A stretch of DNA of 64,000 bases from Spirochaetaceae bacterium. GTDB taxonomy: Bacteria; Spirochaetota; Spirochaetia; DSM-2461. Under the pieces are notes generated by a model. It searched no databases. It saw only the letters and a program-made list of their open reading frames with translations, and had not been told where the DNA came from. The stretch lies in contig OZ245056.1 of assembly GCA_965224705.1 (NCBI GenBank), positions 1,824,001 through 1,888,000 on the forward strand. The letters run 5' to 3'. Below, piece by piece: positions 23,037-36,938 of the stretch; position 1 is the stretch's first letter; every line of letters starts with the position of its first letter. A program made the translations under genes and the position numbers.

Positions 23037-24275
23037 ATGAAGAGAATTATGATTCTGGCCTTAGTGGTTGTAATTGCCGGAGCCGCATTTGCGGATGTTG
23101 ATCCTGCATTCAGTGGATCGTTTTCAACCTATATCGGAGTGTCATTGCCGGAAACGAGTAGCTCAGGTGCTTTGAAAACAAGTGTCTCTGATTCTATAAG
23201 TTTGGATCTCAATGCGACTATCGATGAGTGGAATACTGTTTCTGTAACCGTGGGATTGGCTGATGCCATGTACTGGGACGACCTGGATGGTGTTGGTAGT
23301 GACGGCATAATTAATACAGATCGTCTGAAAGGAACAGCTGTCATTGATTCCGATGGTAATCCAACCACGACGGGTACGACAGCCGGGACTGCGAATCCAG
23401 TAGGCGGTGATGAACTGGATAACCGTGGTGATTATCTCCGCATGAAAGCCTTCACTTATACGACCGACATTCTGGGTGCTCTGGGTGTCGATGGACCGGT
23501 TGGCCTCAGTCTCAAGTTCGGTAAATTTGGTTTTGGCGGTTCTACTTCCTATGTGAATGTCGCCCCTGTATCCACAAAGGACGCCGATGGTACGGGCGGC
23601 ACGGACGATGGAAACGTGGGCATTGGAGTTGATTTGAAATTGTTTGAGAAAGCGACTCTGAGCACTGTTATTTATCCCGCAAACCTTGCCAGTATTGCAG
23701 AAGATGGTAATACAAGATTTGAAGGTGGTGCAACTTTGAAAATCGCAGGTATCGCTGATAAGCTTGACGTTGCAGCTTACTTCCTGGCTTCAGCCTATGA
23801 TGCAAGAAAAAAGGAGAATGCTGATGCGGATACCGCAGATGGCGATGGAATGAGCCTGGGTGCCAGTCTGGCTCTTACACTTGATGCACACAAAATTGGT
23901 GTTGGTTTCCAGTATGATCTGGATGAGGGTTTAAGTGAGAATCAGGCAAAAGCTCAGATTGATTATGCCCTGACACTCGATAAGGTTACATTGGGTCTGT
24001 CCTATGGTGTTGGCGGCTTCAATGAGTTCGCTAAAAATAGCGATGTGAGATTGTCGGTTCTGTATAATATCCTGGATAACTTTGGTGTTTTCGGTGCCAT
24101 CGGTCTGGGTGATTTTTCCAGCCTGGGTGCAGACTCTATCAAATACGATGTCGGTCTTACCACCGCTCTGGGTGCATTGGCCATTCAACTGGGTGCTTCC
24201 AACAATTTGCAGTATAAGGCACCGGAGGATGATTGGAACGATGTGATTTACGTCAAATTCAGCACATCATTCTAG
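23037..24275 (+). CDS. Probable major outer-membrane beta-barrel (porin-like) protein
   Basis: Signal peptide ending AAFA, alternating amphipathic strands, C-terminal YVKFSTSF, SD GGAG, own promoter and terminator. Confidence 0.75.
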   Translation: MKRIMILALVVVIAGAAFADVDPAFSGSFSTYIGVSLPETSSSGALKTSVSDSISLDLNATIDEWNTVSVTVGLADAMYWDDLDGVGSDGIINTDRLKGTAVIDSDGNPTTTGTTAGTANPVGGDELDNRGDYLRMKAFTYTTDILGALGVDGPVGLSLKFGKFGFGGSTSYVNVAPVSTKDADGTGGTDDGNVGIGVDLKLFEKATLSTVIYPANLASIAEDGNTRFEGGATLKIAGIADKLDVAAYFLASAYDARKKENADADTADGDGMSLGASLALTLDAHKIGVGFQYDLDEGLSENQAKAQIDYALTLDKVTLGLSYGVGGFNEFAKNSDVRLSVLYNILDNFGVFGAIGLGDFSSLGADSIKYDVGLTTALGALAIQLGASNNLQYKAPEDDWNDVIYVKFSTSF

Positions 24276-30062: not shown

Positions 30063-30656
30063 TTACTCATTACTACTGTTATCTTCCTGTGCCAATCGTT
30101 TCAATTCCTGCATTGCGGCATCACACCATTCCAACTCCGCAGTGTAGAACCTCAAGCCAAAATCCAATGATAGCTTCCAATAGGGGATTTCAGACTGGAT
30201 TTCTGGTTGAGACTCATTGCTTAATTCCTCAGTAAGGTAGGTATTGATATCGTCGAGATTGTGGAGAACATCTTCACAGTGAGTTTTTCGATGTTCAATC
30301 TTTTCTATGAGTTTTTTCGGACTCAGCATATTGCCGTAGAACACCTGGAGAAGAAGTTCCTCTCTAAGCTTCCTGATTTCAGGTATCTGATGGAGCCAGT
30401 CTTTGAATTCCTGACGCCCGGCATCGGTGATGGTGTATACTTTTTTGTCCGGGCGGCTTTCCTGTTGGAACTTCTCCATAGTTACTGCGCCCTCAGCTTC
30501 CATTTTCTTCAGTAATGGATAGATGTTGCTGTAGTTCTCCGACCAGAAATGACTGATTGATTTATCACACAGGTTCTTAATCTCATACCCGCTCATGGAT
30601 GTCATGTTGAGCATTCCAAGTAAGGCATAACGGCTTTTGCTTTTTCTAGGCAACAA
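30063..30656 (-). CDS. PadR-family transcriptional regulator with AphA-like C-terminal domain
   Basis: YALLGML...SGYEI...FW......IYP.L..ME..G, RPDKKVYTITDAGR..F..WL, LDFGL...AELEW. Confidence 0.93.
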   Translation of the reverse strand: MLPRKSKSRYALLGMLNMTSMSGYEIKNLCDKSISHFWSENYSNIYPLLKKMEAEGAVTMEKFQQESRPDKKVYTITDAGRQEFKDWLHQIPEIRKLREELLLQVFYGNMLSPKKLIEKIEHRKTHCEDVLHNLDDINTYLTEELSNESQPEIQSEIPYWKLSLDFGLRFYTAELEWCDAAMQELKRLAQEDNSSNE

Positions 30657-30848
30657 TGTGTCCTTTACAGTAATTGAGAAGATTGCTGGAAGACAGCAGG
30701 CCGGTATTTCTACAGGATATCATGTGATCTGGACCTGCACTATAAGAAATAATAGTTCTCACAACCCTCCGGTTACCCCAATATACAGGAAGCAGAAAAA
30801 AGAGTCCAGCAAAGAAAAAAAGAATATTTACAAAAAAAATATAAATAA

Positions 30849-30905
30849 TTGACATATTCCATTAATGTACATATATTGTTATGCATAAGATGAACGATCA
30901 GTTCA
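30849..30905 (+). promoter_or_regulatory. Promoter and candidate operator(s) of the envelope operon
   Basis: TTGACA (30849)-17 nt-TATATT (30872); palindromes ATGTACAT, TTATGCATAA and ATGAAC-N5-GTTCAT (30889-30905). Confidence 0.6.
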
Positions 30906-30932
30906 TTCACAAAAAGACAGAAGAGGTGAATA

Positions 30933-31673
30933 ATGAAATTTACAATACTATTGATGATTTTGGTGGTGACTGGTATGACAGGTTTGGCTGGCGAGGCGAT
31001 CTGGGACACTTTCTATGAAATGGCAGGATCCCGGGAAGAAGCCGAGGCCACAAGCCTGGATTCCACCGATGCTCAGGCCCTGAAAAAGGCGGGTGTCTAT
31101 TACTTCGCCCTGGTGAACGGTGTGAATTCAGTCAAAATAGATAAAAAGAACAGAGTTGATAATGCTAAAACAGCGATGGATTACTTTGAAGCGGCCTATA
31201 CACAGGATAGGAAGAATCCCGAATTAGGAACCTGGAGAGCCACATCGACATTGTCGTACGCCGGTGCTGTAAAAAAACTGTCAATTAAGATCAAGTACTC
31301 CAATATGGGGATTTCTTATTATAACCAGGTACCCACAGGTCAGAGGAACAATCTGGATTACCTGGCCATGCGCATCATTTCTTACAGCCAGGTCCCGAAA
31401 AGTTTTAAGAATCTAACAGATATCGTTAAAAGTGATGCTGAGAACTACATGACTATCTATAACTCCTTGACTCAGAATCCAGGAACACATGAATACCTTA
31501 AGGAAACAGTCAAGGTTATGCATGCTTATGCTTATTTTATTACTGGGAAAAGAGATATCGCAAAGAAACATGTACTCACCGTTGATGAAGATCTATTGCT
31601 GAGAGGTCAGGGAGCGGATACCACAACAGCTGATTACTTCTTTCGAATGAAGAAAAAACTGAAAATCAAGTAG
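30933..31673 (+). CDS. Secreted alpha-helical (TPR-like) protein
   Basis: Signal peptide without Cys; helical-repeat pattern (AMDYFEAAY...NPE); SD GAGGTG. Confidence 0.6.
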   Translation: MKFTILLMILVVTGMTGLAGEAIWDTFYEMAGSREEAEATSLDSTDAQALKKAGVYYFALVNGVNSVKIDKKNRVDNAKTAMDYFEAAYTQDRKNPELGTWRATSTLSYAGAVKKLSIKIKYSNMGISYYNQVPTGQRNNLDYLAMRIISYSQVPKSFKNLTDIVKSDAENYMTIYNSLTQNPGTHEYLKETVKVMHAYAYFITGKRDIAKKHVLTVDEDLLLRGQGADTTTADYFFRMKKKLKIK

Positions 31674-31692
31674 GAGGAAGAGATAACTATTG

Positions 31693-32379
31693 ATGAACAA
31701 GTCAACCATTGTCAAAGTTGAAAATCTTCATAAATCCTATGTCATGGGCAAAATCAAAGTACCGGCACTCAGAGGACTAAGCTATGCTTTCAAGGAAGGC
31801 TTCACTGTTGTAGCAGGACCTTCGGGGAGTGGAAAGAGCACTCTTCTCAACATCCTGGGATGCCTGGATTCGCCAACTTCAGGGGATGTACATCTTGGAG
31901 GTGAAAACGTTACAAGGCTGGATGAGGCTGCCCGCAGCCGTTTAAGGCGCAACTACATCGGATTCATCTTCCAGAGTTTCAGTCTTATTCCTGTCTTATC
32001 GGTTTTTGACAACGTAGAATACCCAATCCTACGCTCCGAATTAACAAAAACAATGCGCAAGGAAAGGGTGTCCAATCTTCTTGAGGAAGTAGGGCTGGGG
32101 GATTTCATGCACAGGTTTCCAAGGGAACTGTCGGGAGGGCAAATGCAGAGGGTGGCCATTGCCAGAGCCCTGGTGGCTCATCCAAAACTCATCATTGCAG
32201 ATGAACCAACAGCCAACCTGGATTCCAAAACAGGGCAGAGGATCCTGGAACTTCTCGGTCGAATACAGGATGAACAGGGAGCTTCGGTTATTATTGCCTC
32301 CCACGACGGCAATGTTCTGGACAGGATTACAACACAATTATTCATTCAGGATGGAGTTATATACAATGGAAACAATTGA
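31693..32379 (+). CDS. LolD/MacB-type ABC ATP-binding protein
   Basis: [30 protein letters not shown] and ADEPTANLD motifs. Confidence 0.93.
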   Translation: MNKSTIVKVENLHKSYVMGKIKVPALRGLSYAFKEGFTVVAGPSGSGKSTLLNILGCLDSPTSGDVHLGGENVTRLDEAARSRLRRNYIGFIFQSFSLIPVLSVFDNVEYPILRSELTKTMRKERVSNLLEEVGLGDFMHRFPRELSGGQMQRVAIARALVAHPKLIIADEPTANLDSKTGQRILELLGRIQDEQGASVIIASHDGNVLDRITTQLFIQDGVIYNGNN

Positions 32380-33595
32380 ATTAAAAATCGCCGTTAGAAA
32401 CCTGATAGCAAATTCCAGAAGAACTCTTCTGACTCTTTTTATTATTATCATTGGTTTAACGGCAATTCTTTTCATTGCCGGTTACATCAACATGGTTCGA
32501 GTTGGATTTGGAGAAATACTGATCGGTGAGAAATACACTCATTTCCAAATATACAGAAAAGGGTTTCTGGAATTGGATGACAGATCTTCCATGAAGTTTT
32601 CACTATCCCCCGATGATATTGCAACTATTGAATCAATTTTGCTGAAGCGAGATGAGGTGATGGCTGTGTTTCCGAGAATCAATGTACAGGGAGTCATCGG
32701 GAATGTGGATGTATCCAAGCTCTTCCTCGGCTACGGTTCCGATCCTTATTATGAAAACCTCATGACTTATGGAACTATTCTGGAAGGGATGAAGCTGTCG
32801 GAGGAGGATCCCTACATGTGTGTTATCGGATCAGGTCTGGCTGAAAAACTCAACGCTTCGCTGGATGACCCACTGTTGGTTTCGGTTCCAAATGACGGTG
32901 GAGGACTTGAAGCAGAAAGCCTTGTCGTCGGCGGAATTGCCAATTTTGGCCCCAAGGAACTCAACGATACAGCGGTACTGGTTTCTCTGGAAGTCGCTCG
33001 ATCGCTTCATTATACAGAGAATGCCCAATCTATTATGGTGCTGCTTGATGAAACAAAACATCTTGAAGAAACGTATGCGTACTTCCTGGATGAAGCCGAC
33101 AAAGCAAATCTGGACATTGAAACAAAAACATGGATTGAGATGGATCCCTTCTACCTTTCGGTCATGAGAGATTACACCTTTCAGCTTAATCTGATCGCTA
33201 CAATTTTTCTTTTTGTTATACTGCTGGCCGTCAGCAATACAATTTACATGGCCATCATTGAAAGAACTCCGGAAATTGGAACATTGAGAGCCATTGGAAT
33301 TTCCCGGATGGAGATAATAAGAACCATCCTTCTGGAGGGATTGATTCTGGGAATAATTGGAGTATTGTCAGGTGTGGGCATCGGATATCTCATTCAGTAC
33401 ATACTGCGCATTGTCTACGTTGAGCTTCCCCCCCCGCCCTCCCTGACAGAACCCATACGGCTGGCCATTCAACTGAGAGTTCAGGATGTTGTTTTCTACA
33501 GCGGACTTCTTGCTGTTTGTTCCGTAATCGCAACACTGTTCCCCGGGCTCAAAGCATCCAATACGAATATTGTTTCAGCAATCAGACACGCTTAG
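32366..33595 (+). CDS. FtsX/LolE-type ABC permease
   Basis: IAVRNL..N.RRT, large periplasmic domain, ERTPEIGTLRAIG and C-terminal AIR. Confidence 0.92.
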   Translation: METIELKIAVRNLIANSRRTLLTLFIIIIGLTAILFIAGYINMVRVGFGEILIGEKYTHFQIYRKGFLELDDRSSMKFSLSPDDIATIESILLKRDEVMAVFPRINVQGVIGNVDVSKLFLGYGSDPYYENLMTYGTILEGMKLSEEDPYMCVIGSGLAEKLNASLDDPLLVSVPNDGGGLEAESLVVGGIANFGPKELNDTAVLVSLEVARSLHYTENAQSIMVLLDETKHLEETYAYFLDEADKANLDIETKTWIEMDPFYLSVMRDYTFQLNLIATIFLFVILLAVSNTIYMAIIERTPEIGTLRAIGISRMEIIRTILLEGLILGIIGVLSGVGIGYLIQYILRIVYVELPPPPSLTEPIRLAIQLRVQDVVFYSGLLAVCSVIATLFPGLKASNTNIVSAIRHA

Positions 33596-33604
33596 GAGGT
33601 TGTT

Positions 33605-34333
33605 ATGAGAATCAAGTGTTTTTTATCATTGTTCCTTGCATTGAATATGGGACTGTTTGCCCAGAACCAGACAGACCAGGAATTTCTGGACGCATTGAGA
33701 AGTGAAAGCGGTTTTGCTCCTCAGTTCAAGGCTGAAATGCTCTTCGAGGTCAGTACACCGGGAGGAGCACCCTCATCAGCGACTCTTACACTCTATGAAA
33801 ATAGCGGTAGCTCTATCGCCAAATTCCTCAGTCCGGCAAGAGATAAAGGGAAAACAGTTTTGCAAAAGGGAAGCAAGTACTGGATGTATTTTCCAAAAGC
33901 AAAGCGGTCCACAGTCCTTTCGCCCCTGGCGAATATGGTGGGGAATGCATCCAATGGAGATGTTCTCAGACCCCCAAAAGCCTCTCTTTATGATATTACC
34001 CTGCTTGACACAGAGCCCAGGGTAGGAAATCGAGTTGTGCAGTTTATAGCATCAGCACGAACAGCCCCCTATGGCAAAGTTATTTCCCATTATGAAGATG
34101 ATAAAATACTCGAATCAGAAATGTATACGCGCAGTGGAATACTGATGAAAAAATCCTATTTCTATGAACACAGGAAGAATACCGAAGGGTTTGGATGGAT
34201 GCCTCTCAAGAGCCGCATTGTTGATGGTCAAAATGAGGAAAAGTTCACCGATATAACCTTTACGAATGTCGAGATCCTTAAGAATATCAATGAAAACTGG
34301 TTCAATCCCAATAATTTGGGAAGAGTTCGGTAA
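33605..34333 (+). CDS. LolA-like outer-membrane lipoprotein-sorting protein
   Basis: Signal peptide, F.SPARDKG..VL.....WMYFP, G.ASNGD, APYGK and WFNPNNL. Confidence 0.85.
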   Translation: MRIKCFLSLFLALNMGLFAQNQTDQEFLDALRSESGFAPQFKAEMLFEVSTPGGAPSSATLTLYENSGSSIAKFLSPARDKGKTVLQKGSKYWMYFPKAKRSTVLSPLANMVGNASNGDVLRPPKASLYDITLLDTEPRVGNRVVQFIASARTAPYGKVISHYEDDKILESEMYTRSGILMKKSYFYEHRKNTEGFGWMPLKSRIVDGQNEEKFTDITFTNVEILKNINENWFNPNNLGRVR

Positions 34334-35730
34334 TGAAGGGGCAGAGAATTGATATCAGGACTATCTTCTGTCTGTCTCTGGGCAGTTTGATTCTTTCAGG
34401 TGAGGAATCGTTGTCCGCTCAGGCAATAACGGCCGCCGCCTCTGCGGAGTTCAAATGGCATCCTTATGGCAGCGTAATTAACAGTCAATCGGCCCTGAAT
34501 CCCGATAATTATCTGAAATTGCAAAACCTGACTAACAGGGCTGCATCATCATTCTGGTTTGACATTTACTTTGGAAACTTCATGCAGCTCAGCGGGAACA
34601 TGGAATTGACGGCCAATAATAACCGAAGTCAGCGGCTGATCGATACCTCTACCGGTGAGGATTATTCCACTCTGGGCGATCTCACCCTGGGATTTGATCA
34701 GATTTATCTTGAGTGGACAACTCCAAACTACTGGTATCTTGGGTATGGGAAGTATCCACTTCGATATGGATATTCCCGCGTTTACTCTCCCCTGAATTAT
34801 ACAGCCCGAGCTCTGGATTATCGGGACACCCTGGGTCAGTGGAATGGGTGGTTTAAGGGAAATATTGGCCCCGTCAATTTTGCGTTGAACTACTTGCCTT
34901 CGGTTCGGTTTAAAAGCAACCCAAATGATAAGAATGACGTAGAGAGGTTTTTCTCAAGCATGGAAACCCTTACCGATAGACAAACCCTCATTGTATCCAT
35001 GTCCGGATTTTTCTTCGACAGCCTGGATACCAGTCTGTATTTCAATATGCAGGATAAGAATCATTATGACTTCCAGGAATTCTATCTCTCCATGGGAGGC
35101 GGTTTTTCCTGGTCCATTCTGGACAAGCTTATCTGGCGATCGGAATTTCTCTATGGAAACGGTTATGATGATGTGAAGGTTGTACAGTCTTCCGGCACCA
35201 GCATTCCTGTTCTTCCTCAGCAGGAATGGATTGATCGAAATCTCAATCAATACTTTGCCAAAGCTCTCACCGGTCTTACCGTTACCATCCCGGGTGATAT
35301 TGAGTTATCCGCCGAATACTACTTCAATGGGGCCGGACTGTCGGCCTCCGACCGCAGGGATTTCATCGATGCCCTGAAGATTTCAGGCGATGCCCTGGAG
35401 AATGCATCTTTTGGTGAAGATGTGAAATCGGCCTATAAAGGATTTCTCGGGGCTGGAATTGACAACTGGAAAGTTTACGAGTTGGGCCAGCACTATGCGT
35501 TTTTGCAAATAAGAAAGCTTGGCCTTTTCCAGAGATTGGATATCATCAATACATCTATTCTGCTGGCAGATGATCTGTCATTTGCGAACGTCACGACTCT
35601 GACATACAATTTCAGCGACAATTTCACTGCAGGAGCAGAAATCCGATTCTTTCTGTTCCCGAATGATGGCGCCTACAGTCTGACGCCGGAAGCATTTCGG
35701 TGTGAACTGAATGCTCAATATAGTTTCTAG
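34333..35730 (+). CDS. Outer-membrane beta-barrel protein
   Basis: Signal peptide, aromatic-rich amphipathic strands (QIYLEW, G..PL.YG, AEYYFNG.G) and C-terminal AQYSF. Confidence 0.75.
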   Translation: MKGQRIDIRTIFCLSLGSLILSGEESLSAQAITAAASAEFKWHPYGSVINSQSALNPDNYLKLQNLTNRAASSFWFDIYFGNFMQLSGNMELTANNNRSQRLIDTSTGEDYSTLGDLTLGFDQIYLEWTTPNYWYLGYGKYPLRYGYSRVYSPLNYTARALDYRDTLGQWNGWFKGNIGPVNFALNYLPSVRFKSNPNDKNDVERFFSSMETLTDRQTLIVSMSGFFFDSLDTSLYFNMQDKNHYDFQEFYLSMGGGFSWSILDKLIWRSEFLYGNGYDDVKVVQSSGTSIPVLPQQEWIDRNLNQYFAKALTGLTVTIPGDIELSAEYYFNGAGLSASDRRDFIDALKISGDALENASFGEDVKSAYKGFLGAGIDNWKVYELGQHYAFLQIRKLGLFQRLDIINTSILLADDLSFANVTTLTYNFSDNFTAGAEIRFFLFPNDGAYSLTPEAFRCELNAQYSF

Positions 35731-35738
35731 GGGGAAAA

Positions 35739-36938
35739 ATGACCAGGATTAAACGGGCTCTGCTGAGTTCACTTCTAATAACGGTATCCGCTGTGGGATG
35801 GTCGCAGGCAGAAATCAAGGATGATAGTTATTTGATCAAAGAAATCAATATCTCGGATTCAGATATGTCTGACACATATATCCGGCGGCTTCTGACCTTC
35901 AAGGAAGGCGACCATATGTCCGATGAGGAACTGGAAAAGGCCCTGTCACTCTCACGGGTGCTGGCACAGAACGACAGTAGTATTTACTTAATTGAGTTTG
36001 AGACCCGGAAAAATAACTCTGACCTGTTTGTTGAAGTCATTGTGTACGATGCCGTTGTGAAGTTCTCCTTTGGAGCATTCTCAACGGGTCCTGTCATTGA
36101 ATATCGAAACCTGTTTGGAGAGGGCATTGATGTGGGCACTCATCTGGGTTTTTCCCGGCAAATGCTGTCTCTGAACTGGAAACGGATAGCCAATGCCCCC
36201 ATTGGCTTCTCCTTTCTGGCTGGCCATCAGATTTTTAATGAATTCGAGGCAGACTACCGGACATCAGCCCTTGGTTCCACCAACCGCCTGTATCTCTGGC
36301 TTGGACGTCACATTAATCTGGGTGTGCTGAATGAAGTCTATGCAAACCTCAGCGGCGGATGGGAAGAGGCCGGAGGTATCACAACTCTGGGTCTTGGCGG
36401 GTATCTCCACATGGACTACTACTACCTTATTGACCTGGTCGATATAGGATTTGAGCTGGATGCCGGATATCTTCATTACTTGCAGGATTTAAACAATGCC
36501 AACAAAGTCTATGCTAAGAGCAGGATATACATTCGTCCATTCAATACCAATCGGATGGCCTTTGAAATCGCCGCACATTTACATCTAGCCGATAATGATC
36601 TGGTATCCCGGGGGAAGAATGCCTTATCAGCGGATACGGGCCGAACAGCCTGGGATCTCGGACTCTACATTCCTGTTCTACTGGGCAGAATCTCCGGCGG
36701 TGCGGAATACTACATAGGCCTGGAACCCGGTGTTATCATGGGAAGGGCTGGAACCGATGAGTTGGAATTATCCAATCCCAATGTGGGAATTTCTCTTGCA
36801 CCAGTTTTACAAATCGGATTTCCCGCTTCGATAAAAGTGGCGGCAAGATTGATATATAATATAAGCGAGGAGAGGTTTTCGTTTCATCTTGGATTCAGCA
36901 ACATGCCCTATACGAAAGAATTGGATAAGGGGTGGTAG
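35739..36938 (+). CDS. Small Omp85/BamA-TamA-like protein with one POTRA domain
   Basis: Signal peptide; POTRA-like IKEINIS...IRRLL.FKEGD....EELEKA; barrel start YRNLFGEG; last strand FSFHLGF. Confidence 0.65.
   Translation: MTRIKRALLSSLLITVSAVGWSQAEIKDDSYLIKEINISDSDMSDTYIRRLLTFKEGDHMSDEELEKALSLSRVLAQNDSSIYLIEFETRKNNSDLFVEVIVYDAVVKFSFGAFSTGPVIEYRNLFGEGIDVGTHLGFSRQMLSLNWKRIANAPIGFSFLAGHQIFNEFEADYRTSALGSTNRLYLWLGRHINLGVLNEVYANLSGGWEEAGGITTLGLGGYLHMDYYYLIDLVDIGFELDAGYLHYLQDLNNANKVYAKSRIYIRPFNTNRMAFEIAAHLHLADNDLVSRGKNALSADTGRTAWDLGLYIPVLLGRISGGAEYYIGLEPGVIMGRAGTDELELSNPNVGISLAPVLQIGFPASIKVAARLIYNISEERFSFHLGFSNMPYTKELDKGW

Follow-up and report, generated by a model that had tools for sequence, protein, structure and literature searches.

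The stretch examined here, referred to as the window, comprises 64,000 nucleotides of a Spirochaetaceae bacterium (NCBI GenBank assembly GCA_965224705.1, contig OZ245056.1, forward-strand positions 1,824,001 to 1,888,000), and carries at 30933-36938 a set of six genes divergent from a padR gene. The six genes encode a real and conserved envelope system, in which a transporter of the ATP-binding cassette (ABC) type and a LolA-like protein are combined with a tetratricopeptide repeat (TPR)-like protein, a predicted porin-like barrel and a small member of the Omp85 superfamily. We assign a probability of about 0.5 to the reading that a small hydrophobic molecule, and not ordinary lipoproteins or barrels, is what the operon exports, by an inducible route that relies on a carrier. 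Labels are internal to the analysis: G-numbers stand for genomes and L-numbers for fetched loci or stretches; G000 is the genome of the window (3.0 Mb, single contig, 95% complete), and the window is G000:C1:1824001-1888000. Papers are cited by accession, and for the accessible part of their text.

The features of the locus are as follows.

30063..30656, minus strand: padR, PadR/AphA-type regulator, 197 aa; PF03551 and PF10400 (PadR and Vir_act_alpha_C) above curated cut-offs.
30849..30877, plus strand: sigma-70-type promoter TTGACA-17-TATATT; 11 of 12 consensus matches, conserved in relatives.
30933..31673, plus strand: gene 1, TPR-like helical protein, 246 aa; predicted signal peptide, no Cys; remote BBJ23 homologue.
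31690..32379, plus strand: gene 2, LolD/MacB-type ABC ATPase, 229 aa; ABC_tran above the curated cut-off, below the LolD and DarD equivalog cut-offs.
32366..33595, plus strand: gene 3, single FtsX/MacB-type (type VII) permease, 409 aa; FtsX and MacB_PCD above cut-offs; four predicted transmembrane segments; BBJ27 homologue.
33605..34333, plus strand: gene 4, LolA-like periplasmic protein, 242 aa; PF17131 (LolA_like, E 5e-23); homologue of BBJ28 and of PDB 3BUU.
34333..35730, plus strand: gene 5, predicted outer-membrane porin-like barrel, 465 aa; ends in YSF; family also present in proteobacterial modules.
35739..36938, plus strand: gene 6, Omp85-superfamily protein, 399 aa, with one POTRA-like domain and 16 predicted strands, from the model, Foldseek and the family profile.
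36591..36644, plus strand: loop 6 of the gene 6 product (residues 285-302), extracellular and short, with no conserved (V/L/M)RG(F/Y/W), and strand 13 without FxDxG.

All seven open reading frames (ORFs) were confirmed, padR on the minus strand followed by the six plus-strand genes, with gaps of 16, -14, 9, -1 and 8 bp between successive genes; the tightly packed, co-oriented arrangement divergent from padR is thus as the initial annotation had it. That annotation also placed the genes behind one promoter. The plus-strand site at 30849-30877 stands, and we infer that the six genes are co-transcribed and that the padR product is a repressor of the operon. An AT-rich imperfect inverted repeat at this promoter is a candidate operator; the sigma-70 scan overall was at chance, with 14 sites versus 13.3 in shuffles. 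The promoter is kept upstream of the first gene in three same-genus genomes, G003, G009 and G012, in all of which padR adjoins the module, and it is also kept upstream of the split pairs of genes 1 and 6 in G001 and G012 (see below). Scans for repeats and terminators gave nothing above chance. The RNA runs contained 7% of the sampled words, their contigs covering scattered pieces, and give no evidence on expression or habitat.

Genes 2-4 supply an ABC transporter and a carrier that resemble the Lol machinery at a distance. Gene 2 scores 211 bits against a LolD cut-off of 308 and 202 bits against a DarD equivalog cut-off of 375, and gene 3 scores 79 bits against a LolCE cut-off of 362. The gene 4 product matches 3BUU, an uncharacterised structure of the LolA superfamily, with E 1e-8. 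BamA (an 846-aa Omp85 frame) and a separate LolA (PF03548) are encoded elsewhere in the genome, so the module genes are not the housekeeping copies, which bears out the earlier view of a dedicated trans-envelope module; judged by size, gene order and similarity only, a permease-ATPase-permease locus is taken to be lolCDE.

The N-terminus of gene 1 is hydrophobic, and the protein has zero cysteines, hence no lipid anchor; by tblastn the window copy is the only one in the genome. It has no Pfam match, and a PDB sequence search with its profile was likewise empty. The structure model (29 sequences, pLDDT 92) is all-helical; Foldseek on this model gave only weak TPR matches, at E 0.006 or worse, and the candidates were submitted to VIA-align. 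The top match there was the TPR domain of PTPIP51 (Z 16.3, root-mean-square deviation 3.4, 198 aligned residues), followed by TatT (Z 14.2, 3.8, 199 aligned; Z 14.0 for a second entry), the sterol binder BstC (Z 13.7, 3.6, 194 aligned), and 2PL2 and another TPAT protein (both Z 13.6). From this model, with its TatT/BstC-like shape, the gene 1 product is predicted to bind a ligand or act as an adaptor in the periplasm, as a second protein there beside the carrier.

Gene 5 is, by prediction only, an outer-membrane barrel. Its profile has no match in PDB, and none of the 22 family members matches any Pfam family; the nearest language-model clusters (0.97) are named porin or alginate-export-like, and DUF1302 occurs on 22% of the members of one neighbour cluster. 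The sequence contains 13 amphipathic 10-mers versus 8.1 in shuffles, a value of 13 being reached in 8 of 500 shuffles.

Gene 6 gives only a weak Pfam match, to POTRA (E 0.004). Its model is based on 7 sequences and has pLDDT 73 (53-67 in the N-terminal part), and the count of 16 strands is our reading of the DSSP assignment on that model. The top Foldseek matches are BamA and TamA (E 6e-7), and the profile of the wider family matches BamA with E 2e-7; POTRA is found on 15 of 20 family members and PF01103 (Omp85) on 3 of 20. Omp85 proteins have a lid-lock made of the loop-6 motif (V/L/M)RG(F/Y/W) and the strand-13 motif FxDxG (PMC11358297). Both motifs are missing from all seven gene 6 sequences of the window clade, neither being present in any of them, whereas among the distant members of the family (A6) an FxDxG-like match to a relaxed pattern is seen in 10 of 13, and an IR/VR loop-6 motif is also kept. 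An Omp85 protein that lacks the lid-lock offers a natural test of the purpose of that motif. The Omp85 tree is a quick one with long-branch warnings, and places neither the window clade nor BBJ25 reliably, the latter standing on a long unresolved branch. Gene 6 accompanies gene 1 and is, most likely, an accessory that works with it; a complex prediction for the two products (gene 6 residues 24-399 with alignment A6, gene 1 residues 20-246 with alignment A5) scored 0.01 against a mark of 0.32 and was used neither way.

We surveyed 13 genomes of the same genus and 47 others, several of them 71-88% complete; the same-genus genomes are kin and not independent events. Gene 1 was found in 5 of the 13 and in none of the 47, and gene 6 in 4 of the 13, with one weak match, in a 989-aa frame, among the others. 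G003 has padR and all six genes in the same order. In G009 (82-89% identical, same neighbourhood) and in G012, padR is followed by genes 1-5 and gene 6 lies elsewhere, whereas G005 has a distant five-gene form in which the gene 5 homologue occurs without gene 6. Genes 1 and 6 form a separate pair in G001 and G012, in both behind the promoter that the ABC module of G012 also has. Genes 2-5 are still encoded at other places in the two genomes; the operon is thus retained, though split. In two of the three splits gene 6 stayed with gene 1, and in G009 it has no gene 1 beside it. In G012 a TAG stop interrupts the gene 1 copy of the module (L024:10276-13305) close to the N-terminus, and padR is separated from the promoter by a transposase-like ORF; an intact gene 1 is found elsewhere with gene 6.

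The gene 1 profile (A5) matched 31 of 400 sampled genomes, and for the phylum survey 32 stretches were taken from 28 genomes, together accounting for 40 of the 45 gene 1 places. A permease is present in 19 of these 32 stretches, the complete four-gene core in 16, a gene 6 homologue in 13, and all six components in 8; the barrel profiles were built iteratively from the counted loci, so these counts are partly circular. Co-occurrence of the six families in other genomes, which the initial annotation had proposed to look for, is thus observed. The eight all-component loci span three families, five being from one family, and one of them, L092, has its LolA-like gene in the reverse orientation. L081 and L084, which entered in round 1 from the window-clade profile alone (E 6e-9 and 8e-7), have the order Omp85-TPR-TPR-ATPase-permease-LolA-barrel-permease; two-TPR forms are seen in these two and in L088. 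As a held-out test we took all 20 further matches to the gene 6 family at E<1e-29. A gene 1 homologue lies directly downstream in five of them, with a DsbD_2/4Fe-4S module instead of the ABC genes; one has a LolA-like gene, and 14 have neither, two of these 14 lying at contig ends. Because of these counts, the link between the TPR protein and the Omp85 protein is recurrent but not obligatory. A recurrent spirochaete operon (L140, L141, L142, L147 and L152; also L103, L105 and L107) consists of a one-POTRA Omp85 protein, a gene-1-family TPR protein, a DsbD_2 membrane protein, a 4Fe-4S protein and a Glucodextran_C/TPR protein, Pfam having been run on L140-L142 and partly on L107; the L107 copy has no Omp85 gene.

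The neighbours of the core in other genomes bear on its cargo. The permease matched 64 plasmid records and the LolA-like protein 33, and in nine non-Borrelia loci hand-picked from these the two genes are adjacent. In six of the nine hand-picked loci the core lies within 10 kb of acyl carrier protein (ACP), ketosynthase, polyketide synthase or desaturase genes; six have barrels of the gene 5 family and a seventh has a barrel in two pieces, and no member of the gene 6 family was found in the plasmid loci. In spirochaetes, YcaO, ThiF and nitroreductase genes are neighbours at L077, and FeeM and acyltransferase genes at L087. That the core recurs beside genes for the synthesis of lipids, polyketides and peptides points to a cargo that is small and hydrophobic. 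At L077 and L078 the TPR-ABC-LolA-barrel module stands directly before the ThiF, YcaO and nitroreductase genes (by Pfam for L077). L041 is a locus that we take to be afc-like. The accessible text of PMC13614206 is silent on transport genes. The arrangement at L077 and L078 echoes the sag genes beside J23-J29 on lp28-8 of Borrelia (PMC12958805).

In the proposed mechanism, the gene 2 ATPase and a homodimer of the gene 3 permease would lift the cargo, a lipid, an acylated metabolite or a foreign hydrophobic compound, from the inner membrane in the manner of LolCDE; the LolA-like protein would ferry it across the periplasm, and the gene 5 barrel would release it at the outer membrane. Gene 1 would act as a second binder or adaptor to which gene 6 is accessory, and repression of the operon by PadR would be lifted on binding of a ligand. 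Of the two functions put forward in the initial annotation, movement of a hydrophobic ligand has gained support, and export of the 246-aa gene 1 product through the ABC/LolA route is unlikely, the protein having no cysteine and so no lipid anchor.

Several observations weigh against carrier-mediated export of a small hydrophobic molecule. Generic TPR proteins reach Z 12-13.3 against gene 1, leaving the lipid-binding ones a small margin, and it is not obvious what an Omp85 protein would do in the export of a small molecule. The permease is missing from 13 of the 32 gene 1 stretches (some contigs are short), and the nine plasmid loci, chosen by hand, include only two with a gene 1 homologue. G001 has the promoter, yet no padR orthologue was found there at E<=1e-10, so conservation of the promoter may reflect duplication and not regulation. 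Neither a radical SAM gene, in agreement with the initial annotation, nor a biosynthetic cluster was found to flank the operon among ORFs of at least 80 aa, shorter peptides not having been looked at, and the cargo therefore gets no local indication. The literature surveyed yielded no experimental test of any member of this ABC-type module.

Other explanations assign the cargo or gene 6 differently. A second Lol-type pathway for a subset of lipoproteins, in which gene 6 would be an outer-membrane insertase or flippase in the place of LolB, would account for the LolCDE/LolA-like transporter and carrier, and PMC13078400 proposes that the ligand may be lipoproteins and that BBJ25 may act as an insertase. 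It is nevertheless unlikely: the operon contains no lipoprotein cargo gene, gene 1 being without Cys, the core often adjoins small-molecule biosynthesis genes, gene 6 is absent from 8 of the 16 complete-core loci, and the porin-like gene 5 is left without a role. We regard as distinctly unlikely, too, that the one-POTRA Omp85 and a TatT/BstC-like TPR protein are a mobile pair that plugs into different inner-membrane systems, either the ABC-LolA-barrel exporter or the DsbD_2/4Fe-4S module, the Omp85 protein, which in this lineage would have lost its lid-lock, serving as outer-membrane port or insertase for lipid delivered by the TPR protein; if true, this would be an Omp85 protein that handles lipids or small molecules instead of proteins.

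A further reading takes gene 1 for a passenger that gene 6 translocates to the outside, similar to two-partner secretion and joined to a separate ABC-LolA-barrel exporter. The two-gene units with shared promoter in G001 and G012 fit this, as do the five held-out homologues with gene 1 downstream and no ABC genes, but both genomes encode genes 2-5 elsewhere, so that the pair is a split operon; G009 has a gene 6 without adjoining gene 1, 14 of the 20 held-out homologues have no such neighbour, and gene 1 is all-helical where TpsA is beta-helical. All this makes a passenger quite unlikely. There is little chance, likewise, that the gene 5 barrel has in gene 6 a dedicated factor for its folding, assisted by gene 1 as a BamD-like TPR partner. 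The Omp85 fold with its POTRA domain, the FxDxG and IR/VR motifs retained by distant family members, and the ability of Sam50 to work with one or no POTRA (PMC4104836) speak for it; the seven window-clade sequences without both lid-lock motifs speak against it, and so do the gene 5 homologues found without gene 6 in G005, in half of the spirochaete core loci and in the plasmid loci. Least probable of all is import or recycling of a host-derived lipid, from barrel to carrier to ABC transporter: members of the TatT family have been linked to import and Treponema depends on lipids from its host (PMC10942540), but PMC13078400 characterises type VII ABC transporters as exporters or extractors, and five ketosynthase genes with full-frame matches above the Pfam cut-off are present in the genome, which makes fatty-acid auxotrophy improbable. 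Export of a small hydrophobic molecule is the reading we prefer over all of these.

The genome contains two further PF17131 loci. L027 (G000:C1:1389985-1396276) encodes a GntR regulator, an SPFH protein, an ATPase, two permeases, a LolA-like protein and a barrel of 404 aa that is a distant relative of gene 5, and has no TPR or Omp85 gene; an orphan FtsX-type permease at G000:C1:2145658-2146902 is similar to one in the L027 operon. L028 (G000:C1:1915659-1920101), with an MMPL/RND-type protein, a LolA-like protein and a 428-aa probable barrel, resembles an RND version of the cassette. A polyketide-type beta-branching cassette at L158:9526-17812 (G000:C1 about 615500-623800) includes FabD, a ketosynthase, an HMG-CoA synthase-like protein, two enoyl-CoA hydratases, an ACP and a pyridoxal phosphate-dependent acyltransferase; no exporter was recognised in the stretch, and the cassette is a possible source of cargo in trans. 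L159:6755-18000 (G000:C1 about 2050700-2062000) encodes two ketosynthases and an ammonia-lyase together with proteins of 779 and 220 aa, the sizes of MMPL and carrier proteins, and is presumably an aryl-polyene/flexirubin-like cluster. No YcaO gene was found in the genome, which is 95% complete. In the window, the operon is flanked, by ORF reading, by one ABC operon of the sugar/nucleoside type and another, convergent, of the amino-acid type. At 23037-24275, upstream of a lipoprotein gene and the sugar/nucleoside-type operon, lies the gene for a 412-aa secreted protein that ends in F, has no Pfam match and is a probable outer-membrane barrel.

Among known systems, two-partner secretion has a TpsB with two POTRA domains and a beta-helical TpsA with a TPS domain, unlike the one POTRA of gene 6 and its helical partner without Pfam match. 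DarBCD shares the type VII permease and the ATPase, and was cited in the initial annotation as an example of an ABC transporter with a LolA-like protein; its third component, DarC, is in fact a membrane fusion protein, and the term LolA does not occur in the accessible text of PMC8442675. AmeABCD of Castellaniella defragrans (DUF1302, DUF1329, COG4447 and an HAE3 RND protein), shown to aid monoterpene tolerance (PMC6394551) and the one experimental analogue in the literature surveyed, is similar in having an inner-membrane pump, a LolA-superfamily protein, a second periplasmic protein, an outer-membrane barrel and, as its cargo, a hydrophobic compound; it differs in that the pump is RND and not ABC and the second periplasmic protein is COG4447 and not TPR, while the window has the extra Omp85 and a gene 5 with no DUF1302 match. 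BstC binds sterol, and the TPR-like ring fold of BstABC and the TPAT protein TatT, to which the gene 1 model is similar at Z 13.7-14.2, near the generic TPR background, is linked to lipid binding (PMC10942540). Unlike gene 1, which has no Cys and is 8-10% identical to BstC and TatT, these are lipoproteins or T-components, and their partners are RND or TRAP transporters. LolCDE-LolA-LolB of E. coli has in common with the operon a LolD-like ATPase, a MacB/FtsX-fold permease and a LolA-fold periplasmic protein, whereas here there is one permease, scores are below the equivalog cut-offs, the carrier belongs to PF17131 and not PF03548, and two barrels and a TPR protein replace LolB.

The closest counterpart is BBJ23-BBJ29 of Borrelia (Nixon et al. 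2026, PMC13078400), described from predictions alone as two TPR proteins, an Omp85 protein without POTRA, an ATPase, a homodimeric permease, a LolA-like protein and a porin-like protein. It was proposed to export a non-polar ligand, itself unknown, was read as a possible two-host adaptation and, in the accessible text, is reported in full only from Borrelia; the role of J23-J29 is stated to be unknown though the genes are widespread in the genus (PMC12958805). BBJ26 is listed in an infectivity table of PMC3485029, and we draw nothing from that listing. This published architecture does away with the earlier view of the system as a candidate for an undescribed one. The ATPase and the single type VII permease correspond to BBJ26/27, and the permease matches BBJ27 directly (phmmer E 1e-33 to 1e-37). 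In round 2 of an iterative hidden Markov model (HMM) search of 831 ORFs, the gene 4 family reached BBJ28 with E 5e-13 to 2e-9, and the gene 1 family reached BBJ23 with E 1e-5 and BBJ24 only with E 0.01; these E-values are used instead of hhalign scores for BBJ23 and BBJ28, which are circular, the rows being already in the profiles. When only close homologues were used, no profile comparison with the Borrelia proteins was significant save that of the permease, and in the LolA-like tree BBJ28 stands on a very long branch. Gene 6 has no significant sequence link to BBJ25 (hhalign probability 3.75%, E 0.011), the two belonging to the same superfamily by fold, and gene 5 has none to BBJ29 (best HMM E 0.045). 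Both gene 4 and BBJ28 match 3BUU, and the top structural matches of gene 1, PTPIP51-TPR, TatT and BstC, are those reported for BBJ23/24 (PMC13078400).

The window operon and BBJ23-29 have in common a TPR protein, an ATPase, a single type VII permease, a LolA-like protein and, by predicted type, a porin-like barrel and an Omp85-family barrel. They differ in that the window has one TPR gene against two, its Omp85 protein has a POTRA domain where BBJ25 has none, and its copy is chromosomal with padR adjacent. The window operon is a variant that works like BBJ23-29, and falls outside strict membership on TPR number and POTRA. In literature searches that lacked most subscription papers we found no paper on the six-gene form outside Borrelia or on a one-POTRA Omp85-TPR pair; what is new here is the presence of all six components in 8 of 32 loci, from spirochaete families other than that of Borrelia. 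Equivalent six- or seven-gene operons in those families argue against the two-host-adaptation reading, provided that the two barrels are true counterparts, and the PadR-linked copy gives a practical handle on such systems, in that the ligand of the regulator could identify the cargo.

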